Shown here: positions 48,334-64,000 of the stretch, one piece after another
Position numbering within the stretch: the stretch's first letter is position 1
Layout of the letters: each line of letters begins with the position of its first letter
Source: Erysipelotrichaceae bacterium
Lineage (GTDB): Bacteria; Bacillota_I; Bacilli_A; RFN20; CAG-449
Assembly (NCBI GenBank): GCA_015059095.1
Contig: SVBA01000003.1
Span: 38,549 to 102,548, forward strand
Reading direction: 5' to 3'
DNA length: 64,000 bases
The notes under the pieces: model-generated
The model's database searches: none
What the model saw: only the letters and a program-made list of their open reading frames with translations
Told to the model about the DNA's origin: nothing
Position numbers and translations under genes: made by a program

Positions 48334-49158
48334 ATGAAAAATATTATAGAAATATGTAGTAAGAAATTAAATGTTACAGTAAATAAAATTGAATATTATG
48401 AAGGTGGAGTTTCAAATGAGAATTTTTTAATCAATAATAAATATATTTATCGTAGAAAAAAATCATTTCCTCAACCTTTTTATTCTTCCTTTTGTGAAAA
48501 AGAAATTGAAGAATTTATAAAAGACAAAAACATAACTGTTCCATTAGTCTCTATTTTTTCTGATGGAACAAAAATAACTGAATATGTTAATGATGCTACA
48601 GACTTATCACATACACCAATTACTGATGAACTATTAATAAAAATTGCAAAAAAATTAAAACAATTACATTCATATAATTTCAAAGCATCAAATGATTTTG
48701 ATCCTTTTACTAGATTATCATACTATATGGAAAGTAACAAAAATCCATATCGTGAAATAACTGATTTAATTGTTAGTAAAATGAAAAAGTACTATGAAAA
48801 CAATGAGTTAGTTTTGTGCCATAATGATTTAGTACCTGGAAACATATTAGTTGTTAATGATGAAGTCAAAATCATTGATTTCGAATATGCTAGTAATAAC
48901 CATCCATTCTTCGATGTTATTTCATTCTTAAGTGAAAACAATATTACTGATCCTAAGCAAATTGAATTATTTATTAATACATATTATGACAACCAACTTC
49001 CTCCGAATATTAGAGAAATGACAGAAGACTTTTATAACTTCCTAGATCTATTATGGTACAATTGGTCTGTTATGATGTACTATAATTTGCATGAGCCAAT
49101 TTACTATCAAATTTGTAAAACGAAAGCTTTAAGATTATTAAAATTAGTGAAAGAATAG
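48334..49158 (+). CDS. Choline/ethanolamine kinase family phosphotransferase
   Basis: GGVSNEN, CHNDLVPGN, IIDFEYA. Confidence 0.85.
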   Translation: MKNIIEICSKKLNVTVNKIEYYEGGVSNENFLINNKYIYRRKKSFPQPFYSSFCEKEIEEFIKDKNITVPLVSIFSDGTKITEYVNDATDLSHTPITDELLIKIAKKLKQLHSYNFKASNDFDPFTRLSYYMESNKNPYREITDLIVSKMKKYYENNELVLCHNDLVPGNILVVNDEVKIIDFEYASNNHPFFDVISFLSENNITDPKQIELFINTYYDNQLPPNIREMTEDFYNFLDLLWYNWSVMMYYNLHEPIYYQICKTKALRLLKLVKE

Positions 49159-49665: not shown

Positions 49666-50544
49666 CTACTTTAAATATTCATAAATTGATTTACCATTAA
49701 TATTTGGGACAACTAATAATCCAACTGTACCTGGACCACAATGAGCACAAACATTAATTGCTATTGGTTGAACTTTAATTTTATATCCAGGATACTTTTC
49801 TTCGATTTGCTTAATCATAATGTCTAATACTTGCTTATTTGAATCAAAAGCTACAACACTATAATCATATTTTTCAATTGAATGTTCTTCAAAGAATAAA
49901 TCTAGCTTTTCAACAAATGCTTTTTTCATATTTCTAGTCATTGTATCTTTTACAAGTTGACCATCTGTTAATGAAATAACCGGCTTTAAACCAATCATAT
50001 TTCCAATTACTGCAATCGCTGGAGAAATTCTACCTCCATTTTTTAAAGCTTTTAGATTCTCAGGTATAAATGAAACTTTAACATTATCATTATTTCTTTC
50101 ATCTACTAATTCTTGTAATTTAAAAATGTCAGTACCCTTCTTAATTTCTTCATAAGCAAATAATACATGAGACAACATTTGAGTACATACACTATAAGCA
50201 TCAATTACAATAATCTTACCTTCAAATTCAGAATTAGAAATATTATTAAACAATTGATTCATTGATGATAATTTACTAGAAATAGTAAAATGAACAACAT
50301 AATCATAACCTTGAGAAAAAATATTATTAAAGTACTCAATTACACTTGAAGGAGGCGGAGTTGAGGTTTTAATAGTTTTTCCTTCTCTCATAGCCTTACA
50401 TAATTCATCTTGATTAATTGTAATGCCATCTAAAAATTCTTCCCCATTAATTATAACGTTTAATGGAAATACAAATATATTTAAGCTAGAAGCTAATTCT
50501 TTACTAATTGTGCATGAAGTGTCAGTTGACAAAGCAATTTTCAT
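49666..50544 (-). CDS. DegV family fatty-acid-binding protein
   Basis: STDTS, KTSTP, ISSKLS, LKNGGRI, AHCGPG. Confidence 0.92.
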   Translation of the reverse strand: MKIALSTDTSCTISKELASSLNIFVFPLNVIINGEEFLDGITINQDELCKAMREGKTIKTSTPPPSSVIEYFNNIFSQGYDYVVHFTISSKLSSMNQLFNNISNSEFEGKIIVIDAYSVCTQMLSHVLFAYEEIKKGTDIFKLQELVDERNNDNVKVSFIPENLKALKNGGRISPAIAVIGNMIGLKPVISLTDGQLVKDTMTRNMKKAFVEKLDLFFEEHSIEKYDYSVVAFDSNKQVLDIMIKQIEEKYPGYKIKVQPIAINVCAHCGPGTVGLLVVPNINGKSIYEYLK

Positions 50545-50651
50545 ATAAAACCACCATCCCACTTTCTATAAAAAAGTATATCACAAGATTTTTTATTTTA
50601 CAATTTTCTAATCTTTGATTAATAAATAATATTTACTAAGTAAATAAAATA

Positions 50652-51326: not shown

Positions 51327-51917
51327 TCATAATAAAGATAAAAGATCACAATAATCATTAAAAATATTATCTCCACAATAATCTTTAGAATATTCAAAAA
51401 TTTCTAAATATTCATCATTAAAATCTGTGCTTGAAATTATTAAAACATCTTTAAACGATAAGTTTCTTTCATTTACCAAATGCTCAATTAGTTTCATTCC
51501 ATTATGGGGTTCATTATATTTATCTATTCCACTAATTAAATTTGGAGAATAATGATTAACCAAATTATTAACTACATCAATAACTTTATTAGCAATAATT
51601 CTTACTTCAATATTAAATTCTTTACACTTAAAAAGAAACTCTTGAATGCCATTACTTAAAATACTTTTGTTCATTAATTCTTGTTTATAGACGCTTTCAA
51701 ATTTATAAATCTCATCTTCTTCTATCCCTCTAGAAGCACAATCTTCATACAAAGATGAAAGCATTAAAGAAATTGGTTTTCCTAATTCTAAAGCAATATC
51801 ATCCTCAGTTACTTCAATATTGAAGGGTTCACTAATTAATATCGACTTAATAATAGAAGTAACATTTATATATTGATCATCAAAATTAATAATCACTAAT
51901 TTTTTCATTATCATCAC
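51327..51917 (-). CDS. Degenerate HAD-like protein
   Basis: HAD-like layout (IINFDDQ, IIANK, VLII) without intact DxD or GD motifs. Confidence 0.55.
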   Translation of the reverse strand: MMIMKKLVIINFDDQYINVTSIIKSILISEPFNIEVTEDDIALELGKPISLMLSSLYEDCASRGIEEDEIYKFESVYKQELMNKSILSNGIQEFLFKCKEFNIEVRIIANKVIDVVNNLVNHYSPNLISGIDKYNEPHNGMKLIEHLVNERNLSFKDVLIISSTDFNDEYLEIFEYSKDYCGDNIFNDYCDLLSLL

Positions 51918-52003
51918 CTATATTAATATTATATTTATTAAATTAAATTTTAAAGTAAAATCTAAAATATATCTTATTTTAACCTAAAAACTCGCTTGTT
52001 TTT

Positions 52004-52034
52004 AAAAAAAGACAACTCAAAGATGAGTTGTCTT
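52004..52034 (-). terminator. Terminator ending the hydrolase/CoA-transferase unit
   Basis: AAGACAACTCA-aaga-TGAGTTGTCTT with an A-run on +. Confidence 0.75.
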
Positions 52035-52045
52035 AATAAGTAAAA

Positions 52046-52951
52046 TTATCTTTGAACGTATTCTAAGAAATCTTTTGCTAATTGATCAGGTAAATCTACT
52101 AAGATACTATGAGCACAATCGTCATAATATACTTGTTCAATTTGTTTAATCCAAGTTCTATTTTCACTAGTCATAATTTCTGGAGTAGTAATATCTTGTC
52201 TACCATTAAATGCGATTACAGGGCATTTAATATTCTTAGCAATGTCTTCACCTGGAGCATAGAAAGAAGTTTCTCCTGAAATATTAAATCTCATTAATGC
52301 CCAGTCAGCATCAACTAAATTTACTTGTTTGCATGTTTCTTCTAAATATACTTCGTTTTCTTCTTCAGAAGGTCTTTTTTTAGATAATGAAGTATAGATA
52401 GTCATGTTCCAAATTGATTCCATGAACTTGTAATTCTTTGTTTGTTGACAAGTGACCATTGGAACAACTGTAACAGGGTCAAGCGCTAATTCTTCTTTTG
52501 TTTCATAAATTTGACCAACTAAATTTTGGAAAGAAGCATCTTTTTTAAATACTGGATAACCTTTAACAGAACCAGAAGAAATTAGTACCATTTTTTCAAC
52601 TAACGAAGGATATCTAGCTGCAATACTTTGAGATACACAACCACCTAATGACCAACCAGTTAAGATACATTTTTCAACACCTAATTCTTTTAATAAAGCT
52701 ACTACATCATCAGCAAGTTCATGTAAAGAATCAATTCTTGTATTGTATGAAGAATCACCATATCCTCTTAAATCTGGAGCAATTACTCTATATTCATCAG
52801 GAATTCTTTTATATAATGGTTCATAATGATAAGAAGAAGAGAAGTTACCATGAACTAAAACAATAACTTTATCTCCCTTACCTTTTTCAACATATGCAAT
52901 TTTTTCACCATTTGGTAATGTTACATATTTTTTTTCAATTTTTAAAAACAT
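52046..52951 (-). CDS. Alpha/beta hydrolase resembling Bacillus intracellular PHB depolymerase PhaZ
   Basis: LPNGEKIAY, VHGN.SS, DLRGYGDSSYN, GWSLGG, KGYPVFKKD, TKEELALDPV, FNIS, CAHS; these blocks match the B. thuringiensis PhaZ family as I recall it. Confidence 0.75.
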   Translation of the reverse strand: MFLKIEKKYVTLPNGEKIAYVEKGKGDKVIVLVHGNFSSSYHYEPLYKRIPDEYRVIAPDLRGYGDSSYNTRIDSLHELADDVVALLKELGVEKCILTGWSLGGCVSQSIAARYPSLVEKMVLISSGSVKGYPVFKKDASFQNLVGQIYETKEELALDPVTVVPMVTCQQTKNYKFMESIWNMTIYTSLSKKRPSEEENEVYLEETCKQVNLVDADWALMRFNISGETSFYAPGEDIAKNIKCPVIAFNGRQDITTPEIMTSENRTWIKQIEQVYYDDCAHSILVDLPDQLAKDFLEYVQR

Positions 52952-52962
52952 AATTTTTCTCC

Positions 52963-53784
52963 TTAAATAACAAATTTTGTATCTTTTGCATTAGCAAATC
53001 CTAATACTAATGAAATAAATAATAATGGATCTTCATACATTGATGCATGACCACAATGAGGTAAAATAACATGATGGGCATTTTTAAGTTCTTTTACGAT
53101 TAATTCTTGTTCACAAAGCGGAGTTAAACAATCATATAAAGAAGAAATAACTAATGTTTCATGTTTAATTTTATGAATTTCAGTTCTAATATCATGAGAT
53201 TCAGAACTATTAACTAATCTATTCATTCTTTCTTGGAATGCTTTTGTGCTAAATAAAGGAACTAATACTTTTCTTCTATTTTCCATCCATTCTTCTTTTT
53301 CTTGATAGAATTTAGAAGAATAAATAACTGGAATTGCTAAATCATAATAAGCATCTCCATCTAAAGTTTTTCCTACTGCATTCCATGCTCTACCAATATC
53401 TCTTAACCAATTACTAGTCCATGCAGCAGCATTAGCTAAAACCAATCTTTCAACATCTTTTGGATAGTATAAAGCATGTCTTAATGCTACTTCTCCTCCA
53501 TAAGAAACACCAACAATTGTTAAATGTTTTAATTCTAAATGTTCAATTAATGCGTGTAAAAGTTCAGCTTGTAAATTATGATCATAAGTTATTCCATCCA
53601 TTCTTGATGAATAACCTTGATCCAAAAAATCGACTCTTACTAAAGTGTTTGAACTAATAACAGAATTTTTAAATGTATTCCAAGACGCTGTAGACATCAT
53701 AATTCCGTTTAAAAATAGAATTGGTCTACCTTCTCCTTCTATTTCATAATAGACTTCATAGTCTTTAAAATTAAATTTTGGCAT
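52963..53784 (-). CDS. Alpha/beta hydrolase (enol-lactonase-like)
   Basis: LNGIMM, DFLDQG, GVSYGG nucleophile elbow, CGHASMYE. Confidence 0.85.
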   Translation of the reverse strand: MPKFNFKDYEVYYEIEGEGRPILFLNGIMMSTASWNTFKNSVISSNTLVRVDFLDQGYSSRMDGITYDHNLQAELLHALIEHLELKHLTIVGVSYGGEVALRHALYYPKDVERLVLANAAAWTSNWLRDIGRAWNAVGKTLDGDAYYDLAIPVIYSSKFYQEKEEWMENRRKVLVPLFSTKAFQERMNRLVNSSESHDIRTEIHKIKHETLVISSLYDCLTPLCEQELIVKELKNAHHVILPHCGHASMYEDPLLFISLVLGFANAKDTKFVI

Positions 53785-53788
53785 AGTT

Positions 53789-55111
53789 TTAGCCTCTTGG
53801 ATAAATAATACCGATTTTAATTGCTTCTTCCATCAATTGTTCACGGAATTTTGGATGAGCAATAGAAATAATTTTTTCAACTCTTTCTCTAATTGTTGTA
53901 CCTTTTAAGTTAACACAACCATATTCAGTAACTAAATAATCAATATCATTTCTTGATAATGAAACAGTTGCACCTGGTTTTAATTGACATACAATTTTAG
54001 AAACTTCTTCTTTTTCACCAGTAGCTGGATTTCTAACCATTGCAGTTGAATATAAAGCAATAAATGATTTACCATTTTTAGACATTTGAGCACCAATAGC
54101 AGTATCAGATTGTCCACCAGTACCACTAAATTGCATTGAACCAATTGATTCAGAACAGCATTGACCAGTAACATCAACTTCTAAAGAAGTATTAATTGAA
54201 ACTTGATTATCATTTTGAGCAATAACATAAGGATCATTTACATATGAACCTGCTAAAATAGCACAAGAAGGATTATTATCTAAATAATCATACATTTCTC
54301 TAGTACCCATAGCAAATGCTGCAACCATCTTTCCTTTATGAGTTTGTTTACATTTACCATTGATTACGCCAGCTTTAGCAAGTTTTACCATTTCAGAAGT
54401 TAACATTTCAGTATGAATACCTAAATTCTTCTTTCCGTATAATGATTTAGCAACAGCATTTGGAATACCACCAATACCTAATTGTAAACAATCTCCGTCT
54501 TTGATATGATCAGCAATATATTTACCAATTGCCAAATCTTTTTCATTTGGTTCAGCATCTGGAATTTCAGGAATATCATAATCAACTTCAATAATATGAT
54601 CAATATCATTTACATGAATTTCAACATCACCAAATGTTCTAGGACATTTTTTATTACATTCTATAATAACGATATCTGCTGCTTCAATTGATTCTTTTTC
54701 ATAAACATTACTTAAAGATAATGAAATATATCCATGTTCATCTGGATAAGTACCATTACCAACATAAATATGTGGTTTAATATGCGCTAAACGTTTACTT
54801 GCAGCAAAGTGTAAGTTATTTGGAATAAATGAAATATTACCTTGCTTATGAGCTTTTCTTAAACCCGGAGCATAGAACCATCCATCAACACCAAAACTTT
54901 TACGATATTCTGGATTTTGGAAGAATTCATAAGTGTCCATTGGTAAGCAGTTATTAACTGTAACATTTTCTACTCTATCTGCGATAGTATGTAATTGTTT
55001 TAAGAAAGCTTTACCTTCTGCAGAACCTAAACCAGTAATAATGTGATCATTACTTCTAACTAGTTTTAATGCTTCCTCTACAGTAATGATTTTGTTTTTG
55101 TAATCTACCAT
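53789..55111 (-). CDS. Acetyl-CoA hydrolase/transferase family (4-hydroxybutyrate CoA-transferase-like)
   Basis: LQLGIGGIPNAV, GIHTEM, SGTGGQSD, VTEYG, IAHPKFRE. Confidence 0.9.
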   Translation of the reverse strand: MVDYKNKIITVEEALKLVRSNDHIITGLGSAEGKAFLKQLHTIADRVENVTVNNCLPMDTYEFFQNPEYRKSFGVDGWFYAPGLRKAHKQGNISFIPNNLHFAASKRLAHIKPHIYVGNGTYPDEHGYISLSLSNVYEKESIEAADIVIIECNKKCPRTFGDVEIHVNDIDHIIEVDYDIPEIPDAEPNEKDLAIGKYIADHIKDGDCLQLGIGGIPNAVAKSLYGKKNLGIHTEMLTSEMVKLAKAGVINGKCKQTHKGKMVAAFAMGTREMYDYLDNNPSCAILAGSYVNDPYVIAQNDNQVSINTSLEVDVTGQCCSESIGSMQFSGTGGQSDTAIGAQMSKNGKSFIALYSTAMVRNPATGEKEEVSKIVCQLKPGATVSLSRNDIDYLVTEYGCVNLKGTTIRERVEKIISIAHPKFREQLMEEAIKIGIIYPRG

Positions 55112-55253
55112 AATTTTCACCTAATTTAATATAATATTAAACCCTTTCTTATTATATATACTAAACACCTATTTCTAGATGCATTAATATCAACCTTAAA
55201 CTTTCTCTTATAGAGAATTAACTACTATTTATTTGTTTTTTAAAATGAGATAA

Positions 55254-55283
55254 ATCCAATGGGAGAAAAATCCCCCATTGGAT
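55254..55283 (-). terminator. Stem-loop after the SBP gene
   Basis: ATCCAATGGG...CCCATTGGAT. Confidence 0.65.
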
Positions 55284-55325
55284 AATAGTTTTATTTACTA
55301 ATAATGATATTAATAAATTAATTAA

Positions 55326-56810
55326 TTATTTTGCAGCTTCAACAGCTTTTAATGTAGTGATGCCTGAATAAACTTCTAATGCACCAGCACCTAATGCGTT
55401 TTTAGTTAATTTGTTTAATGCTAAGTCTTGGATACCATATCTAGCACCATTTGCTAAATCAATAGCACCACCCATTGGGAAGTCATATGGAGCAGATTCC
55501 ATAGCATCAATGTAGTTTTTCCAGTTTAGAACTTTACCAGCTTCTTCAACTCTATCTAAACCTTCAATGAACATATGACCAGCAATATATCCTGCTAATG
55601 CATATGAGTTGAATGATAATGCCCAAGCAGCAGTTGGATCATTTTCTAATCCCCAAGCAAAGATTGCTTCTGCAACTGTCCAATATTCTTCAGAGAATCC
55701 TGGAACACCAGCATCATAGAATGTAGGAAGACCTAAAGTATCATCATAGATTTTATATCCAGCCCATAAACCAGTACCTACTGTATTACTTGCATCTGGA
55801 GCATAAACATATGTGTCAGCGATATCTAACCATGCAGTAGCATAAGCTTCTCTAGTTTCAGTAATTGCACCAGAGTCAACTAAAGATTTTGCTAAATCTG
55901 TGTTAGCAGAAACATAAGATGTAATAACTTTAACATTGTCATAACCACCTGTTTTGAAGTATGACATAATTTCAGCAAATGGAGCTTGGTTAGCAGCGAT
56001 AATTACAACGTCACAACCAGCATTCTTTAATGCTTGAACTGGAGTACCATGGTTAGTACCAGGAGTAGAAGCTGTAGTTACATAAGTAATATCAGAAATA
56101 CCTAATTTAGTTGCTTCTAATTTAATACCATTTAACATACCTTTACCAGCATCATCAGTAGTTGAGATGACACCAATTTTTTTACCACCTAGACCCATGT
56201 TGCCTTCAGTTTTAGCAACTGCTCTAGCTAATAATACTTGACCTTCAGCGTCATAAATTGGTTGAACAGACATAACTGCTTTATCATTACCTTCTGCTTT
56301 TTGGTTAAATAAACCAGAAACACCAGTAGCAGCATATACCATTGGAATACCTTTTTCTTTAATTGTATCTAATGTAGCTTCTACAGTTGGAGTACCGAAG
56401 TGACCAACAAGAGCGAATACTTCATCTTCTTCAATTAATTTTTCAGTATAAGTAGCACCTTTTGCACCATCGAAACCATCATCATAATGTTTTAATTCGA
56501 TTTTTAAACCTTCTTCGCCGAAACCGCCAGCATCATTATATGCTTTGAATGCAGCTTCTAAACCAGCGTTGAATGGACCACCAACAGTAGCAAATGCACC
56601 TGAAGTAGCAGCAGCGTTTCCAACTAAAATTTTTCCTTCACCAACACCTTGAGAAACTTCTTCTTTTACTTCTTCAGATTTTTCACTTGATGGTGCGTCA
56701 GAAGATCCTGGACCTGGAGCAGGTTCACTAGAAGATGGATTACCAATTCCACATCCTACTAAGCTACCAACTAATGCTAGACTAGCTAATAATAATTTAT
56801 TTTTTTTCAT
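55326..56810 (-). CDS. Liv/HAAT-family ABC substrate-binding lipoprotein
   Basis: Lipobox LVG-C; SGAFATVG, NDAGG, YDDGFD, LIEEDEVFALVG. Confidence 0.85.
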   Translation of the reverse strand: MKKNKLLLASLALVGSLVGCGIGNPSSSEPAPGPGSSDAPSSEKSEEVKEEVSQGVGEGKILVGNAAATSGAFATVGGPFNAGLEAAFKAYNDAGGFGEEGLKIELKHYDDGFDGAKGATYTEKLIEEDEVFALVGHFGTPTVEATLDTIKEKGIPMVYAATGVSGLFNQKAEGNDKAVMSVQPIYDAEGQVLLARAVAKTEGNMGLGGKKIGVISTTDDAGKGMLNGIKLEATKLGISDITYVTTASTPGTNHGTPVQALKNAGCDVVIIAANQAPFAEIMSYFKTGGYDNVKVITSYVSANTDLAKSLVDSGAITETREAYATAWLDIADTYVYAPDASNTVGTGLWAGYKIYDDTLGLPTFYDAGVPGFSEEYWTVAEAIFAWGLENDPTAAWALSFNSYALAGYIAGHMFIEGLDRVEEAGKVLNWKNYIDAMESAPYDFPMGGAIDLANGARYGIQDLALNKLTKNALGAGALEVYSGITTLKAVEAAK

Positions 56811-56878
56811 CTTTTTTCTCCTTTCATTATCATTGTATTATAGATGATTATATTAAATTGCTTGATAGCAATATTAAC

Positions 56879-57733
56879 CTATTTTTTTCCGCCCAAATAA
56901 GCTTCTACTAAACGCTTATCATTAATCAATTCACTAGCAGGGCCTTCTAGTGAAATAGAACCAAGTTCTAATACATATGCATAATCTGCGATTTTTAATG
57001 TTTGCAATGCATTTTGTTCTACAATTAGGATTGTAGTACCTTCTTTTTGAATTTCTTTTAATGTATTAAAGATATCTTTAATAATTAATGGAGCTAAACC
57101 AAGAGATGGTTCATCAAGAAGTAATAATTTTGGGGATGCCATTAATGCTCTACCAATTGCAAGCATTTGTTGTTCACCACCTGAAAGAGTATTTGCTTGT
57201 TGTTTTCTTCTTTCCTTTAAAATTGGGAATAGACGATATACTCTATCAAAATTTTCTTTTTGTTGTTGACTAGCAGTTATTTTAACTTTTTGACCATCTT
57301 TTTCGATAATTTTGGTTTTTAATCCATAAGCACCAGCTTTTAAATTATCTTCTACATTTAATCCATTAAATACCAATCTACCTTCTGGAGATTGAGTTAA
57401 ACCTCTTTTTGCAATATCGAATGCTTTTCTATTAGTAATATTTTCACCATTGAAAATAACTTGACCACCATTTGATTTAATAACACCACTAATAGTTCTT
57501 AATGTAGTTGTTTTTCCAGCACCATTGGCACCTAATAATGCAACAATTTGGCCTTCAGATATTTTTAAATTAATACCTTTTACAGCTTGAATAGGACCAT
57601 AATTAACTTTTAATCCATTGACAAGTAATACTTTATCTTGATCTTCGTCTGCAATTTCTACTTTAGATCCAATAAATTTAGATTTAATCTTATTTAGAAC
57701 ATTAGCGAAGAAATTTACTTTTTTATTTTCCAT
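56879..57733 (-). CDS. LivF-like ABC ATP-binding protein
   Basis: GANGAGKTT, PEGR, LSGGEQQMLAIGRALM, DEPSLGLAP, VEQNA. Confidence 0.92.
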   Translation of the reverse strand: MENKKVNFFANVLNKIKSKFIGSKVEIADEDQDKVLLVNGLKVNYGPIQAVKGINLKISEGQIVALLGANGAGKTTTLRTISGVIKSNGGQVIFNGENITNRKAFDIAKRGLTQSPEGRLVFNGLNVEDNLKAGAYGLKTKIIEKDGQKVKITASQQQKENFDRVYRLFPILKERRKQQANTLSGGEQQMLAIGRALMASPKLLLLDEPSLGLAPLIIKDIFNTLKEIQKEGTTILIVEQNALQTLKIADYAYVLELGSISLEGPASELINDKRLVEAYLGGKK

Positions 57734-57735
57734 TT

Positions 57736-59163
57736 TTATTCCTCCTCTTGTGTTCCTAAATATGCTGCTTGAACTTCTTTATTCTTTTGAATTTCTTCAG
57801 TAGTTCCAATAGCAAGTAATTTACCAAATGAGATAGCACATACTGTATCACAGATATCCATTACAAGTCCCATATCATGTTCAACTAATAAGATAGTACA
57901 ACCATATTTATCTTGAATTTTTCTAATTAACTTAGTTAATTCAGCAGTTTCAGTATCATTTAAACCTGCTGCAGGTTCATCTAAGATAATTAATTGAGGA
58001 TTGTTCATTAATGTACGAGCAATTTCAATTTTCTTTAATATACCATAAGGTAATCCCCAAGCTAACCAATCTTTATATAAAGATAATCCCATAAATTCAA
58101 GAACTTCTTCTGCTTTTTTTCTCATCGCTAATTCTTCTTTCTTAAGTGAAGGAAGATGTAAGAATTGAGTGAATAATGAAGAACGATATTGAGAATGAGC
58201 TGCAACTAATAAGTTATCAATTACAGAAATTTCTTTAACTACTTCTACGTTTTGGAAAGTTCTAACAATTCCTTTTTTAACAATATCATGAACTACATAA
58301 TCAGTTAATGTAATTGTATTACCAGATTTTTCTTGAAATAATAATTTACCTTTTGTTGGTTTGTAGAATTGAGTAATACAGTTAAATACAGTTGTTTTAC
58401 CTGCACCATTTGGTCCAATTAAACCAAAGATTTCACCTTTTTTAACTTCAAATGATAAATTATCAACTGCTTTTAATCCACCAAATTGCATCGTTAGATT
58501 TTCTACTTTTAAAACGATATTTTCATCTAATAATTCTTCATCATTTTTAAGTGTTTTTAATACCTCTTTATATTTTTCTATATTCATTTGAGGTTTAATA
58601 ATACGTTTAGATAATTTTTCTTCAATTGCAGAAATTTTTTCTTCTTCAATTTTTCTAATATCTTTTGTATATTTTTCAATTTCTACTTTGCTACTTTCTT
58701 TTAAAGAAACTAAGCTTTTTCTAATTTCTTCTTTTTGGGCTTCATCAGTAACAATGTATTTAGATAGTTGTTTAGTTAAGCAATTTCTAATTTTACTTTC
58801 AAACCACCATTTATGTTTATTTAGTTTTTCTAATCTAGTTTCATATTTAGAAACTGAAGATTCAGAATATTTTCTTAAGCGCATTCTTTGAATAATAAAT
58901 CTTCTAGCCCAATAATCAAATTTATTGTAGATACGCATTTTAGATACCAATCTAGAACCTACTTCCTCATTTAAATCTAAGATAGCAAATTCTAAGCGAT
59001 TAATTTCTAATTCCTTACTTTTAATAAAGTTATTAATCTTTTTATCACATCTTTTAGAAACAACACTTTTATCATAAATTGCCATTTCTTTTAGGTGATG
59101 TATTTTTTCTGAATTTTTTTCTACTAAAGAAGAGTAGATACCATATTTATTAATAAGACCCAT
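57736..59163 (-). CDS. LivG-like ABC ATP-binding protein with ~210-aa N-terminal extension
   Basis: [36 protein letters not shown]. Confidence 0.9.
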
Positions 59164-60292
59164 ACATTCTCTCCTTTATTTTTTTGAATAATCTCTTAAC
59201 TTTTAATTTTAATTCTAAGAATAATTGAGATAATCCTCCTGGGAAGAACATAACAATTACAACGATTAAGATACCACTAACAAGTCCCATGAAACTTGGG
59301 TTCTTTTCAAAGAATTCAATTTCGTTTAAGAATAATGGTTGAATACCAAATAGAATCATTACTCCAAGTATTACTCCCCACAAAGATTTTGATCCACCAA
59401 TAATTACTGCTCCAAGAATATTAAGTGAAGTATTTAAACTTAATAGAGGGTCATCAGTTGTACTTAATGAACTTGTTACACAAGTAATGTATAACAAACC
59501 ACCAATAGCAGCATATACAGTTGAGATAACGAATGCTAATAAACGATATTTAATTAATGAAATACCCATTGCTTGAGCAGCACTTGTTGAGTTTTTCATA
59601 GTTACCATTGCTCTACCTGTAGGCGAATTAATTAAGTTTTGAGTCAAAACTAATAAGATAACAAAGATTACTGTTACTAATGCACACTTACTCGCATTAT
59701 CTAATTTAGTTAACCATAATATTGCATTTGAACTACTTACTTTAATAGTTGCAGTACCATTTAAGATTGATGCGATATTTTCTAATAATTGGAAGATGAT
59801 TTCTGCTAATCCTAATGTTAAGATAGCTAAATACATACCTTCAATTCTTAACGAGATAAACCCGACAAACATACCTAGAATTATCGATACTATTATTGCC
59901 CCTAATAAAGCAATAAAGATTGATACATTAATTGCTTGTCCTCCTAGATACAAATAGAAAGGATATTTTTCTATGATGATATGAGCAACCATTGCTCCTA
60001 CCCCAACAAATCCTGCTGTACCTAAAGATGCCAATCCTGAATAACCAAGTAATAAACAGAATCCAATTGATATAATTCCATAAACGACTAATGTAGCTAA
60101 TGTTTTAGACATTGAATATGGAATTATTTTTTTATTTGCCAAATTACCTAATACGATTAACACTATTCCCATTAATACGAAATAGATAATTGGACTTTTT
60201 AAGAAATTAATTATTTTTCTTAAAACTTGTTTAATGATGTTGTCCTTTTTAAACATCATAGAAGGTGCTTTATTATATTGTTTCATTTCCAT
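59150..60292 (-). CDS. LivM-like ABC permease
   Basis: LLGYSGLASLG, LRIEGMYLAILTLG, NSPTGRA, AAQAMGI. Confidence 0.9.
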   Translation of the reverse strand: MEMKQYNKAPSMMFKKDNIIKQVLRKIINFLKSPIIYFVLMGIVLIVLGNLANKKIIPYSMSKTLATLVVYGIISIGFCLLLGYSGLASLGTAGFVGVGAMVAHIIIEKYPFYLYLGGQAINVSIFIALLGAIIVSIILGMFVGFISLRIEGMYLAILTLGLAEIIFQLLENIASILNGTATIKVSSSNAILWLTKLDNASKCALVTVIFVILLVLTQNLINSPTGRAMVTMKNSTSAAQAMGISLIKYRLLAFVISTVYAAIGGLLYITCVTSSLSTTDDPLLSLNTSLNILGAVIIGGSKSLWGVILGVMILFGIQPLFLNEIEFFEKNPSFMGLVSGILIVVIVMFFPGGLSQLFLELKLKVKRLFKKIKERMYGSY

Positions 60293-60294
60293 AA

Positions 60295-61227
60295 CTATAC
60301 CTTCTTGACTACTTTCTTACCAAATAAACCATTTGGTCTAATATAAATAACAATCATTACTACAACATAGGAAATTACTTTAATCCATGAAGTAATACCT
60401 CTTAAAGATTCCACATTTGCAAAGAAGCCAACACAAGTTTCAAATACTGGAATAATAACTGCAGCAACTACTGGACCAACAAATGATCCAAATCCTCCAA
60501 GAATACCTGCTAAGAATGCATTAACTTGGAATTCTGTCATAATAAATGGATTAGTTAACGTACCATTTTCTCCAACAAACATTACACACGCAAGAGCACC
60601 AAGCCCGCCTGCAATACCCCATGAAATAGCTGTAATTGCATATGTATTAACTCCCATCATTTGAGCAACATATTCATTTGATGCTGTTGTTCTTACTCCA
60701 AGTCCCCATTTTGAGAATTTTAATAAAACAAACAATACTCCAATAATAGCAATGGTTAATCCTAAACAAATTAATGAATGAACCGTAATTGTTAATGATT
60801 TACCAGCAATATCTAAGACAATAGGTGGTGTATTTAATTGGTTAGTTAATCCTGGGAAAGTTGGAGGAGCTAAATACTTCCAAATCATTGGGATACCATT
60901 ACCTAATATTGATACGATACCCATAGTAATAATCTGTTTACCTACCAAATTTACATTTCGTCCATTTCTAAAGATAACTAAATCAATAAATAAACCAATC
61001 AAGATACCAAAGACAATGCCCATTAATAAACTTAACCAAATATTCCATTGCTTAGAAATTAAGAATGTTGAAGCAACATAACATCCAAGAGCAGCTACTG
61101 TTCCTTGAGCAAAGTTTGTTGTTGCAGATGTCTTAAATATCAAAGTAATTGCAAATGTTGCTAAGACTAAAACACAAATGTAAGTAAGAGAAGAAGCGAA
61201 TGGCTGTAAGAAATCAGCTATTCCCAT
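60295..61227 (-). CDS. LivH-like ABC permease
   Basis: LIFKTS..TNFAQG, SKWGLGVR, AQMMGVN, ILGGFGS. Confidence 0.9.
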   Translation of the reverse strand: MGIADFLQPFASSLTYICVLVLATFAITLIFKTSATTNFAQGTVAALGCYVASTFLISKQWNIWLSLLMGIVFGILIGLFIDLVIFRNGRNVNLVGKQIITMGIVSILGNGIPMIWKYLAPPTFPGLTNQLNTPPIVLDIAGKSLTITVHSLICLGLTIAIIGVLFVLLKFSKWGLGVRTTASNEYVAQMMGVNTYAITAISWGIAGGLGALACVMFVGENGTLTNPFIMTEFQVNAFLAGILGGFGSFVGPVVAAVIIPVFETCVGFFANVESLRGITSWIKVISYVVVMIVIYIRPNGLFGKKVVKKV

Positions 61228-61229
61228 AA

Positions 61230-62252
61230 CTATTCACCCCACTTAATAATGTTTGCTGCCCAAGCATAACCAATACCAGCAGCGATCATACAAACTACTG
61301 ATCCGTCTTTAACTTTACCTTCTTTTAATGCTAATTCTAAAGATAAGATTTGATCAATTTGTCCAACATGACCATAATTTTCTAGATAGATTGATTGATG
61401 CTCTTCTAAACCTAATTCTTTTAACATTGCATAATGTCCAGAACGTTTCATATGTAATACATCTAAATAATCGATGTCAGCTCTAGTCATACCTGCTCTT
61501 CTACAAGCTTCATCAATACAATGATACCAGTTAGGCATTGAAACTTCGTTTAAACGATCTTTCATTTTCTTAGGTTCCATTAATCTTAATGATTTTCTAG
61601 ATTCTTCTAAATTTTCATGAGTAATTGGATTATTAATACCACCAATTTCAACACCTGCAGTTCTAGAAATTGAACCATCAGACATAATCTTTGTACCTAA
61701 TAACAAGTTTTTATTGTAATTTTTCTTTAATATGATTGCGCCACCACCAGCAGCTAGATTAAACATCATTGACATATTTGTATCTGAATAATCAACAAAG
61801 TCACCATTTCTATAACCACCAACAACCATGATTGTATCAATTTCATCATCAGCGATTAACATAGATTTAGCAATCTCCATAGCTGCTACACAAGTACAAC
61901 ATCTATTTTGAACATCAATACCCCAAGCATTAACTGCTCCAATTTGATCTTGGATATAAATAGCAGATGTAGTTAATGGATATTCTTTCCATTCTTCACC
62001 AATACATAAGATAACATCGATGTCTTTTGGATCAACACCTGTGTTTTCTAAACAAGCTTTAGCAGCTCTAACACCCATTTCTTGAGTACCATCATCATCT
62101 CCTGGAACTGGTTTTTGATTGATACCTAATTTGTTTCTAACTGCATCTTCACTCCAAATACCATTAGTAGCATCAGAAATTTCTTTAGCAGTCATAATCT
62201 TTTTTGGTAAGTAAGTACCTACACCAACAATACCAACATTAACTTTTGACAT
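61230..62252 (-). CDS. FabH-like (KAS III / thiolase-fold) condensing enzyme
   Basis: GVGTYLP, DVQNRCCT (catalytic Cys), VLHMK, YGHVGQID, AAGIGYAW. Confidence 0.85.
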   Translation of the reverse strand: MSKVNVGIVGVGTYLPKKIMTAKEISDATNGIWSEDAVRNKLGINQKPVPGDDDGTQEMGVRAAKACLENTGVDPKDIDVILCIGEEWKEYPLTTSAIYIQDQIGAVNAWGIDVQNRCCTCVAAMEIAKSMLIADDEIDTIMVVGGYRNGDFVDYSDTNMSMMFNLAAGGGAIILKKNYNKNLLLGTKIMSDGSISRTAGVEIGGINNPITHENLEESRKSLRLMEPKKMKDRLNEVSMPNWYHCIDEACRRAGMTRADIDYLDVLHMKRSGHYAMLKELGLEEHQSIYLENYGHVGQIDQILSLELALKEGKVKDGSVVCMIAAGIGYAWAANIIKWGE

Positions 62253-62274
62253 ATAAGATTCCTCCTTTACTATA

Positions 62275-62994
62275 TTATAATCTCATACCACCATTAACTT
62301 CTAATACTTGACCTGTAACATATGAAGATTCATCACACGCTAAGAATAAAGCAGCATTAGCAATTTCATGAGGTTGTCCTAATCTCTTTAACATTGTTAA
62401 TTTAGCAAAATCATCTAATAAATTTTGAGGTACTGTTTTTAACATATCTGTCATGATGTAACCAGGAGCGATTGCATTACAGCGAACGTTAGCACCTTTT
62501 CTTGCAAATTCTTTTGCCCATGTTTTTGTCATACCAATTACACCAGCTTTAGATGCTGCATAATTAGCTTGACCAATATTACCAAATACGCCTACAACAC
62601 TAGAAATATTGATAATAGAACCATAACCATTATTTTCCATTTGAGGACCAAATAATCTAGTCATGTTGAATACGCCTTTTAAGTTAACTGCGATAACTGC
62701 ATCAAACATATCATCAGTCATTTTTCTTGTCATAGCGTCTTTTGTAATACCTGCATTGTTAACTAAAATATCAACTTTGCCATATTTTTCTACTGCATAA
62801 TTATAGAATTCTTGACAAGCAGCAGAATCTGTAATGTTTAATTTGTATAATTCAATATTTGGATTTTCAAATGTAGCGTCACCTAAATCAACTGCGATAC
62901 ATTTTGCTCCTTCACGTGCGAATAATTCACACATTGCTGCGCCTAATCCTCTAGCGCCACCAGTAACAACTGCAACTTTTCCTTCTAATCTCAT
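62275..62994 (-). CDS. 3-oxoacyl reductase (FabG/PhaB-like SDR)
   Basis: TGGARGLG, NNAGIT.D, SSVVG, NYAASK, IAPGYI. Confidence 0.9.
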   Translation of the reverse strand: MRLEGKVAVVTGGARGLGAAMCELFAREGAKCIAVDLGDATFENPNIELYKLNITDSAACQEFYNYAVEKYGKVDILVNNAGITKDAMTRKMTDDMFDAVIAVNLKGVFNMTRLFGPQMENNGYGSIINISSVVGVFGNIGQANYAASKAGVIGMTKTWAKEFARKGANVRCNAIAPGYIMTDMLKTVPQNLLDDFAKLTMLKRLGQPHEIANAALFLACDESSYVTGQVLEVNGGMRL

Positions 62995-63027
62995 AAATTT
63001 TCCTCCTTATTATATATATTTATTTAA

Positions 63028-64000
63028 TTATTGAACTTTTTTTAATACTACTGCTGTACCCATGCCTCCACCGATACATAACGAAGCAAGACCTGTATTG
63101 AAGTTATCATTATGTTTCATTAAATGAATTAATGTAACAACAATTCTTGCTCCTGAAGCACCAACTGGATGACCTAAAGCAATAGCGCCACCATTTAAGT
63201 TAGTCTTATTAAGAATAGATTCTGGAGTTACATTATGTTGAGATGATAACTCTTTTACTACTCCTAATGATTGAGCAGCAAACGCTTCATTTAATTCTAA
63301 AACATCTAAATCATTAATTGATAAACCTGTTCTAGAAAGAACATCATTAACTGCTGCAACTGGACCTAAACCCATTAATTGAGGATCAACTCCTCCTTGA
63401 CCAACTCCAATGATTTCACAAAGGATTGGGAGATTATGTTCTTTAACTGCTTCTTCACTAGCGACGATAACATAAGCTGCGCCATCATTAATTCCTGAAG
63501 CATTACCTGCAGTTACACTACCTTGAGGATCAAATGCAGGTCTTAAAGTAGATAATTTTTCTAAAGAAGTTGTTCTATTTGGATATTCATCTGTATCAAA
63601 AACAATTTCTTTTTTACGTTCTTTAATAATTATTGGAACAATTTCTTCTTTAAATGCACCTGAATCAACTGCTCTAATAGCTTTCTCTTGAGAATTAATT
63701 GCAAATGCATCTTGTTCTTCTCTAGTAATACCATATTTTTTATTAATGTTTTCAGCTGTAATACCCATGTGAACTCCACTATAAGCATCAGTTAAAGCAT
63801 CATATACCATATGGTCGATTGCTTTAAATCCTCCCATCTTAACTCCTTGTCTAGTAGATTCTGGAATTAAGTATGGAGCAGATGACATATTTTCAGCACC
63901 ACCTGCTATAACGATTTTACTAAATCCTGCTTGGATAGAAACATAAGCATTGATAATAGCTTTCATACCACTACCACATACCATATTAATTGCATAAGCT
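63028..64000 (-). CDS. Acetyl-CoA C-acetyltransferase (thiolase), 5' end outside the window
   Basis: INMVCGSG, GNASGINDGAA, ELNEAFAAQ, GHPVGASG, LCIGGGMG; frame is open to the window edge. Confidence 0.95.
   Translation of the reverse strand, partial: AYAINMVCGSGMKAIINAYVSIQAGFSKIVIAGGAENMSSAPYLIPESTRQGVKMGGFKAIDHMVYDALTDAYSGVHMGITAENINKKYGITREEQDAFAINSQEKAIRAVDSGAFKEEIVPIIIKERKKEIVFDTDEYPNRTTSLEKLSTLRPAFDPQGSVTAGNASGINDGAAYVIVASEEAVKEHNLPILCEIIGVGQGGVDPQLMGLGPVAAVNDVLSRTGLSINDLDVLELNEAFAAQSLGVVKELSSQHNVTPESILNKTNLNGGAIALGHPVGASGARIVVTLIHLMKHNDNFNTGLASLCIGGGMGTAVVLKKVQ

Follow-up and report, generated by a model that had tools for sequence, protein, structure and literature searches.

The 64,000-nt stretch of contig SVBA01000003.1 from an Erysipelotrichaceae bacterium (hereafter the window) carries, together with the adjoining part of the contig, a 15-gene operon that we read, with a probability of roughly 0.55, as a TetR-controlled catabolic unit: it would take up esters or oligomers of (R)-3-hydroxybutyrate that other organisms produce, cleave them in the cytoplasm and dismutate the product, by R-specific steps, to acetate and butyrate. 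All steps of this scheme are proposed from gene content. Genes in the window were identified from an open reading frame (ORF) listing combined with two family libraries, Pfam and NCBIfam, and the next 12 kb of the contig were read as a separate piece (L001), in which position x equals window position 60000+x. According to the ORF listing and family models, a gap-free run of minus-strand genes reaches from 52046 to the window end at 64000 and encodes, in order of transcription, a thiolase, a short-chain dehydrogenase/reductase (SDR), a FabH-like enzyme, two permeases, two ATP-binding cassette (ABC) ATPases, a binding lipoprotein, a coenzyme A (CoA)-transferase and two alpha/beta hydrolases. A first-pass annotation of the same DNA had named this co-oriented run, with the five transport genes as a Liv-type importer, and all of its members are present. 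It had also called the operon putatively complete, which it is not within the window: the operon extends 3.6 kb past 64000 on the same strand, adding genes for EtfA, EtfB, an acyl-CoA dehydrogenase and a MaoC hydratase. The whole unit comprises 15 genes over 15.6 kb, with MaoC first and the PhaZ-like hydrolase last:

52046..52951, minus strand: PhaZ-like cytoplasmic alpha/beta hydrolase, 301 amino acids (aa); NF050089, PDB 8ynv
52963..53784, minus strand: second cytoplasmic alpha/beta hydrolase (ABH1), 273 aa; Pfam Abhydrolase_1, PDB 4q3l
53789..55120, minus strand: short-chain (hydroxy)acyl CoA-transferase, 443 aa; AcetylCoA_hydro N and C domains
55326..56810, minus strand: substrate-binding lipoprotein of the HAAT/Liv family, 494 aa; Peripla_BP_6
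56879..57733, minus strand: LivF-type ABC ATPase, 284 aa; Pfam, NCBIfam
57736..59163, minus strand: LivG-type ABC ATPase with N-terminal extension, 475 aa; ABC_tran at residues 234-398
59150..60292, minus strand: LivM-type permease, 380 aa; BPD_transp_2
60295..61227, minus strand: LivH-type permease, 310 aa; BPD_transp_2
61230..62252, minus strand: FabH-like enzyme (KAS III fold), family PRK06840, 340 aa; NF005308
62275..62994, minus strand: FabG/PhaB-like classical SDR, 239 aa; family-level Pfam/NCBIfam matches
63028..64000, minus strand: acetoacetyl-CoA-type thiolase, 402 aa, cut by the window end (whole gene L001 3028-4236); TIGR01930
L001 4263-5255, minus strand: EtfA
L001 5256-6047, minus strand: EtfB
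L001 6062-7201, minus strand: short-chain acyl-CoA dehydrogenase (Acd)
L001 7207-7617, minus strand: MaoC-type R-hydratase, first gene of the operon
L001 7974-8570, plus strand: divergent TetR-family gene; TetR_N

The last gene encodes a protein that narrowly passes the equivalog model for intracellular short-chain polyhydroxyalkanoate (PHA) depolymerases (NF050089, 314.6 bits vs a cut-off of 300) and matches PDB 8ynv along its whole length (E 4.9e-67, residues 8-297 against 19-306), listed as a Bacillus thuringiensis enzyme in Table 1 of PMC12278694. The first-pass annotation, which had proposed just such a profile comparison of 52046-52951 with PhaZ, had matched four blocks of this protein to Bacillus PhaZ, and the match is confirmed: GWSLGG (residue 99), KGYPVFKKD (130), TKEELALDPV (151) and FNIS (222) align with GWSMGG, KGYPIFKKD, TKEEIAQDPV and FNIS of the solved enzyme. 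The triad Ser101, Asp253 and His281 is invariant in 30 sequences. Neither this protein nor ABH1 has a hydrophobic N-terminus, as judged by inspection of the sequences, which agrees with the annotation's statement that both lack a signal peptide. Full-length family membership, lipase box, Ser-Asp-His triad and absence of a signal peptide are shared with PhaZ of B. thuringiensis and B. megaterium (NF050089; PDB 8YNV, 8YNW). Bacillus PhaZ acts on granules that the cell builds with its own PhaC, whereas the gene in the window occurs without any PhaC and shares its operon with an importer. NF050089 was also the best NCBIfam model for all 38 PhaZ-like neighbours of FabH-like genes in related loci, 25 of which exceeded its cut-off. 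ABH1 carries GVSYGG with Ser94, matches Pfam Abhydrolase_1 and is close to PDB 4q3l, 'MGS-M2' (E 2.3e-76); none of the NCBIfam models was passed by ABH1, and a search of the full-text literature found no paper on MGS-M2 / 4Q3L.

A pair of cytoplasmic ester hydrolases, including a member of the polyhydroxybutyrate (PHB) depolymerase family, would be pointless unless esters reached the cytoplasm, which would be the importer's job. Its binding protein has a lipobox (LVGC, Cys20) and, after the lipid anchor, a low-complexity linker rich in Ser, Pro and Glu. It is far from the LivJ model NF011933 (27.4 bits vs a cut-off of 477), in line with the view of the first-pass annotation that the system does not serve amino-acid uptake. 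The best PDB sequence match had an E-value of 9.2e-8, and the best fold match of the predicted model (predicted local distance difference test, pLDDT, 86.4) was 4n03, a fatty-acid ABC binding protein. With HAAT (Liv) importers, including those for fatty acids (4n03) and for lignin-derived aromatic acids (4ey3, 4f8j and 4evq, Rhodopseudomonas palustris), the system shares its five-part architecture and the binding-protein fold. It differs in the binding protein, which is only 14-20% identical to the solved ones, is anchored as a lipoprotein and has an insertion of about 40-45 residues relative to them (334-372, pLDDT 42-51), and in the long N-terminal extension of the LivG-type ATPase. This Lys/Glu-rich extension takes up about 215 aa (residues 1-215) and has no Pfam match; LivG orthologue lengths in related loci are bimodal (n = 64, with 37 of at least 400 aa and 26 below 320 aa).

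The enzyme set points to C4 chemistry, as far as family assignments can tell. The thiolase scored 467 bits against TIGR01930 (cut-off 240.55), and its top matches among specifically named equivalog or subfamily models were of the acetoacetyl-CoA type, although it did not pass the PhaA equivalog (360 bits vs 740). The SDR passed no equivalog cut-off, those for PhaB included (TIGR01829, 239.7 bits vs 302.1; NF042966, 199.8 vs 436). PhaB uses NADPH; the SDR of the window has an Asp after beta-2 (D36, in IAVDLG at residue 33), kept in at least 95% of 52 orthologues. The first-pass annotation had noticed this mark of NAD(H) preference, which is real and conserved, but had also taken it as a sign of the oxidative direction, and here we differ: the direction is not fixed by it, since butyrate could be formed just as well with a reductase that runs on NADH. 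SDRs of the FabG/PhaB type and MaoC hydratases are R-specific, and the R isomer is the form that PHB contains. The CoA-transferase had butyryl-CoA:acetate CoA-transferase among its best specifically named family matches, though below the cut-off (TIGR03948, 312.7 bits vs 674.8), and had 4-hydroxybutyrate CoA-transferases as its nearest relatives in the PDB (E 3.4e-93). The best family match of Acd was acryloyl-CoA reductase AcrC. The thiolase, the SDR and the MaoC hydratase belong to the three enzyme families of the PHB cycle, PhaA (thiolase), PhaB (acetoacetyl-CoA reductase) and PhaJ (MaoC-type R-hydratase), with the same R stereochemistry, and differ from those of PHB producers in scoring below the PhaA and PhaB cut-offs, in the NAD-type Asp and in the absence of a synthase. 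As a separate observation, the MaoC hydratase matches the N-terminal third of PRK08190, a 'bifunctional enoyl-CoA hydratase/phosphate acetyltransferase', from which it follows that such hydratases are fused to a Pta-like domain in other organisms.

To place the operon in its cellular context, the whole genome (1.76 Mb, 38 contigs, 27.8% G+C, rated 95% complete) was searched with family models; absence from such a draft is not proof. Within these bounds we detected no PHA synthase PhaC (PF07167, TIGR01836), no phasins (PF09602, PF09361), no secreted depolymerase families (PF10503, PF01674), no Hbd (weak Rossmann matches only) and no crotonase-family protein, and Acd was the only Acyl-CoA_dh_N match. 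Equally undetected were FabF, FabD, a PTA_PTB-type phosphotransacetylase and a carboxyltransferase, the last of which means that acetyl-CoA carboxylase is missing as well. The sole match to the FabH model was the operon's own FabH-like gene, below cut-off, while acetate kinase AckA and a PduL-type phosphotransacylase were present. The only gene resembling acyl carrier protein (ACP) lies on another contig (G000:C20:6364-6588), between CobB-type deacylase and deacetylase genes, and scored 46 bits against a cut-off of 70. The first-pass annotation had reported phaC, phasin and ACP genes as missing from the window, which holds, had named a genome-wide search for phaC and phaP as a test, in which neither turned up, and had argued against a role in fatty-acid synthesis, with which the lack of FabF, FabD and carboxyltransferase and the single sub-threshold FabH match agree. 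Taken together, and with the caveat that applies to any draft, these results suggest that the cell cannot make PHB, that it lacks fatty-acid synthesis and malonyl thioesters for a FabH, and that the operon may be its only C4 acyl-CoA pathway, R-specific throughout (SDR and MaoC). A DegV/FakB-like gene (49666-50562) adjoins the operon and is kept in this genome without FabH, FabF, FabD or acetyl-CoA carboxylase; the cell probably depends on outside fatty acids.

In the scheme that we propose, the lipoprotein and the LivHMGF-type ABC system would take up the ester, and the PhaZ-like hydrolase and ABH1 would cleave it in the cytoplasm. The CoA-transferase would activate 3-hydroxybutyrate with CoA drawn from acetyl- or butyryl-CoA. 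One part would then pass through the NAD-type SDR, which would oxidise it, and the thiolase, which would release acetyl-CoA, with ATP formed via PduL and AckA. The other part would lose water to the R-specific MaoC hydratase, and Acd and EtfAB would reduce it to butyryl-CoA, a branch that would take up the NADH, giving a net conversion of 2 hydroxybutyrate to 2 acetate and 1 butyrate. The FabH-like enzyme would belong to the process without an assigned step, and in this genome it could not act as a malonyl-dependent condensing enzyme. The first-pass annotation had proposed a similar path of import, hydrolysis, CoA activation, oxidation and thiolysis. Its assignment to the PhaZ family and its premise that the cell makes no PHB of its own are retained here, but it stopped at oxidation, whereas the reductive branch upstream (MaoC, Acd, EtfBA) makes dismutation likely, and it left the FabH-like enzyme without a role. 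Fermentation of 3-hydroxybutyrate to acetate and butyrate is attributed to Ilyobacter species in PMC10096456, citing Janssen and Schink (1993). The proposed pathway resembles that of Ilyobacter polytropus and I. delafieldii (fermentation of 3-hydroxybutyrate, crotonate and PHB) in its 2:2:1 balance of hydroxybutyrate, acetate and butyrate, its CoA esters and its gain of ATP from acetyl-CoA, a comparison made on physiology; the operon adds an ABC importer, cytoplasmic hydrolases and the FabH-like enzyme. I. delafieldii secretes a depolymerase; in the genome of the window organism neither PF10503 nor PF01674 was found.

We then considered how consistently these genes occur together. The FabH-like gene had 5615 relatives at E ≤0.001 among 8000 candidates scored, and scanning a single genome per species confirmed it at 377 places, 80 of which were fetched with their flanks. 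ORFs of these loci were matched to the 16 proteins of the operon and its regulator, and counts were made over the 36 loci with full 10-kb flanks, leaving out 44 that were cut by contig ends. The binding protein and LivG were each found at 34 of the 36 loci, followed by the CoA-transferase (29), ABH1 (27), the SDR (26), the PhaZ-like hydrolase and TetR (25 each), the thiolase (20), MaoC (14) and Acd (11); all 15 families were present at 7. At least one hydrolase occurred at 34/36 loci, and a hydrolase together with the importer at 33/36, which answers in the affirmative the synteny of FabH-like, Liv and PhaZ genes that the first-pass annotation had thought worth surveying. Three loci (L016, L029 and L033) are minimal modules of a PhaZ-like hydrolase, the FabH-like gene and five importer genes, with unrelated genes on both sides. 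In a phylum sample of 399 scored genomes, all of them small and, being related, not independent (hence no statistic is given), 56 genomes had the PhaZ-like gene, 54 had the FabH-like gene and none had PhaC. Each of the 54 also had the PhaZ-like gene (listed genomes compared by eye), and 11 of them had no carboxyltransferase; two genomes (G164 and G361) had the PhaZ-like gene but not the FabH-like one, and in G361 it lies right where a contig begins. The cluster was found in Firmicutes of gut, sludge and sediment and in wall-less relatives; cultured species that carry it include Proteiniclasticum sediminis, Clostridium rhizosphaerae, Sedimentibacter hydroxybenzoicus and Brassicibacter mesophilus.

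Some of the loci depart from this pattern. In Wukongibacter baidiensis (L070 5521-12345) the FabH-like gene and the CoA-transferase gene follow a sodium:solute symporter, not an ABC system, with a 443-aa Lipase_2-domain protein just upstream; Lipase_2 is the family of the extracellular amorphous-PHB depolymerase PhaZ7. At two loci (L047 5343-17830 and L057 159-1640) a sigma-54 activator with a PAS domain stands in place of TetR, and methyl-accepting chemotaxis genes inside and beside the cluster at the former hint at chemotaxis towards the substrate.

Within the window's own family, none of the six other genomes carries a PhaZ-like or FabH-like gene, including a genome of the same genus (G189), whose conserved flanks stop at window position 49158 and resume at 69619, on two contigs. 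About 20 kb (49159 to L001 9618) have no counterpart at the matching places in G189 and hold a SleB-like hydrolase, the DegV gene, a HAD phosphatase, a 196-aa ORF, the operon, TetR and a 284-aa ORF. A clean insertion relative to G189 cannot be shown, as both of its contigs continue into unrelated genes. The two ORFs (51327-51917 and L001 8652-9506) flank the operon and had no Pfam/NCBIfam match at the thresholds used. In a tree of the FabH-like protein, the window's sequence belongs to a clade of 8 rows (SH-like approximate likelihood ratio test, SH-aLRT, 99), 5 of which are labelled Clostridia. The patchy spread, this Clostridia-rich clade and the G+C content of the operon (31.5% vs 27.8% for the genome) suggest, without showing it, that the operon was acquired by horizontal transfer.

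No gene of the cluster is better conserved than the FabH-like one, which is also its invariant member. The protein is 65-96% identical across orders and 76-96% identical to its best 120 database relatives, and labels among the named relatives include Bacilli, Clostridia, Christensenellales, Erysipelotrichaceae and Mollicutes. The protein matches NF005308 (PRK06840, a family named only '3-oxoacyl-ACP synthase' and found in no paper by accession) with 487.3 bits (cut-off 315) and fails the FabH model TIGR00747 (126.7 bits vs 292.1). Cys118 and His267 align with the catalytic Cys and His of FabH structures, whereas the FabH Asn (GNTSAAS) is replaced by His295 in YGHVGQID, kept in at least 95% of 81 sequences; by this alignment the protein lacks the Cys-His-Asn triad of KAS III. 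Among the invariant blocks peculiar to this enzyme, GEEWKEYP at residue 85 has no FabH counterpart. The predicted model (pLDDT 92.4) gave Foldseek template modelling (TM) scores of 0.83-0.86 to FabH structures, in a fold search that was led by FabH-type structures only and does not separate condensing from acyl-transfer enzymes; identity to any solved KAS III member is about 20%. Among the sequence matches were the acyl-transferring enzymes CerJ (3s3l), ChlB3 (7eqi), DpsC and PqsD, which, like FabH, share with the window's enzyme the KAS III fold, the catalytic Cys and the first His. What sets it apart from FabH is His295, the GEEWKEYP block and a genome without malonyl-CoA supply or type II fatty-acid synthesis. 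There was also a partial NCBIfam/PDB match to archaeal HMG-CoA synthase, to whose catalytic Glu the Glu of GEEWKEYP may correspond. A predicted complex of the FabH-like and PhaZ-like proteins scored 0.00 against a mark of 0.32, which speaks neither for nor against binding. Four loci (L015 18535-19506, L056 12953-13888, L058 5344-6324 and L067 12393-13373) have a further, distant FabH-like paralogue (24-29% identical) some genes downstream, which retains Cys118 along with several more of the invariant residues, lacks His295 and is absent from the window genome.

Because malonyl-CoA has no source in the window genome and in ten others of the sample, a decarboxylating condensation of the FabH type is excluded there, and acyl transfer or a malonyl-independent Claisen reaction remains. 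Our tentative guess, with the odds well against it, is Cys-dependent acyl transfer in which 3-hydroxybutyrate ester bonds are cleaved with CoA (thiolysis) instead of water. Thiolysis of an imported oligomer would yield 3-hydroxybutyryl-CoA directly, save the energy of the ester bond and spare one CoA transfer per bond. It would explain why the FabH-like gene is invariant and the most conserved of the cluster, why hydrolase, FabH-like gene and importer can stand alone without a CoA-transferase in the minimal modules, why a PhaZ-like gene accompanies it in 54/54 genomes and why it persists in genomes without malonyl-CoA. A bolder variant, in which the enzyme builds oligo-esters as a PhaC-independent synthase, strikes us as very far-fetched.

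A 356-base spacer separates the MaoC gene from the divergent TetR gene, and the operon ends in a terminator-like structure:

52009..52034, minus strand: terminator-like hairpin with an 11-bp stem followed by a T run, just past the stop of the last gene; by consensus match only
L001 7846-7874: promoter-like site TTGACA-17-TAAAAT, 230 bases before the MaoC start; by consensus match only
L001 7665-7680 and 7754-7769: two leader sites ATGAAT-N4-ATTCAG

The leader palindrome is a candidate operator, judged from its recurrence: the looser form TGAAT-N4-ATTCA (at most one mismatch) occurred in 37 copies in 32 TetR-operon spacers of related loci, being found in 22 of the 32, at a density of 3.81/kb vs 0.098/kb over all loci. 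The TetR protein is a weak match to Bacillus FadR (43 bits vs a cut-off of 200). Between the binding-protein and CoA-transferase genes, a 205-base gap contains a weak hairpin only, without a proper T run, and we claim no internal terminator. Rfam gave no match in the leader (E ≤1) or in 51900-64000 (gathering scores). In two bovine-gut metatranscriptome runs of one study, short near-identical contigs covered the binding protein, LivG, LivM and the LivH/FabH-like junction, for example one of 187 nt that is identical to 58164-58350 and one of 221 nt that shows a single difference from 61121-61341; as the shares were small (0.15 and 0.09) and these are contigs only, with DNA carry-over possible, transcription is not shown. 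Near-identical DNA was found in animal feces and in gut metagenomes of sheep and cattle, including pieces of 614-880 bases with zero differences in one run (X3) and pieces with few differences in a sheep-gut run (X10).

A number of observations weigh against the uptake and dismutation of hydroxybutyrate esters. The PhaZ-like protein scored only 14.6 bits above the NF050089 cut-off, and 13 of the 38 PhaZ-like neighbours fell under it, including six in minimal modules (166-186 bits); two of the 36 fully flanked loci (L062 and L070) have no hydrolase at all. Fold matches of the binding protein, all at 14-20% identity, mix binders of fatty acids, aromatic acids, urea and amino acids and name no ligand, and no HAAT-family importer is known to carry oligo-esters. 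The hydrolytic scheme gives no role to the most conserved gene, the FabH-like one. The operator-like palindrome is absent from 10 of the 32 spacers, 9 of which share the MaoC-first order with the window's operon. As the genome shows no secreted depolymerase, the cell would depend on other organisms for hydroxybutyrate esters in the animal gut; a lead, and only that, is the formation of soluble methyl-esterified 3-hydroxybutyrate oligomers from PHB described for plant-associated Methylorubrum (PMC10883064). Finally, eight of the operon's genes alone would form a route from acetyl-CoA to butyrate, so the direction of the pathway is not fixed.

This last point opens the possibility that the C4 genes serve the cell's own butyrate fermentation from acetyl-CoA via R intermediates, and that importer, hydrolases and FabH-like enzyme handle another substrate. 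Every step is encoded, the NADH-type SDR suits the reductive route too, and without Hbd, crotonase or another acyl-CoA dehydrogenase it would be the sole such route in the genome. Most relatives, however, have thiolase, SDR, FabH-like gene, importer, CoA-transferase and hydrolases but not MaoC, Acd or Etf (Acd at 11/36 loci), so the core cannot make butyrate, and the genes for importer and hydrolases are flanked by C4 genes within a single transcription unit beneath a divergent TetR gene, the usual layout for substrate-induced catabolism; we consider this explanation unlikely. We are similarly sceptical that the imported substrate is a free monomer, 3-hydroxybutyrate or acetoacetate (e.g. host ketone bodies), with the hydrolases marginal. 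CoA-transferase, SDR and thiolase would suffice for it, HAAT importers usually carry small molecules, and the DNA occurs in feces and gut metagenomes of sheep and cattle; but a monomer would need no hydrolase, and yet at least one of the PhaZ family or ABH1 is present at 34/36 loci, and the minimal modules consist of hydrolase, FabH-like gene and importer only.

The substrate might instead be another ester or lactone, such as longer 3-hydroxyacyl esters, 3-(3-hydroxyalkanoyloxy)alkanoates or plant acyl esters, with the R-specific cycle working as a short beta-oxidation. Acd, MaoC, SDR and thiolase make up a complete R-type turn, a fatty-acid binding protein is the best fold match of the lipoprotein, and the nearest solved relative of ABH1 is the metagenomic esterase MGS-M2. 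We nonetheless find this doubtful, given that the best family matches of thiolase, Acd (AcrC) and CoA-transferase point to short chains and that the hydrolase family is one of short-chain PHA depolymerases. Family membership of the PhaZ-like enzyme and the adjoining PhaA-, PhaB- and PhaJ-like genes could also suggest mobilisation of the cell's own PHB granules, as in Bacillus, which is highly improbable with neither PhaC nor phasin detected in this genome, and with PhaC in 0 of the 399 related genomes as against the PhaZ-like gene in 56. Hardly credible, to our mind, is the database reading of branched-chain amino-acid import beside the 3-oxoacyl-ACP synthase III and FabG of fatty-acid synthesis: the public label '3-oxoacyl-ACP synthase' and family-level Pfam/NCBIfam matches to Liv, FabH and FabG speak for it, and against it stand the failed FabH and LivJ models, the replacement of Asn by His295, the lack of FabF, FabD and carboxyltransferase, and an orphan ACP-like gene below cut-off as the only one of its kind.

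PHB ranks with the most abundant storage polymers of bacteria and is used commercially as a bioplastic. The use of its breakdown products by strict anaerobes is known from physiology, and in the full-text literature we found neither a gene set described for it nor a description of this cluster (subscription journals and supplements lay outside the search). If the uptake and R-specific dismutation of hydroxybutyrate esters is the correct reading, this widespread cluster would provide a marker for anaerobic PHB turnover, and would correct a mass annotation of its members as '3-oxoacyl-ACP synthase' and 'branched-chain amino acid transporter'. It would also place the PhaZ family at work outside PHB producers, and would point to an unstudied enzyme that may save the energy of the ester bond.

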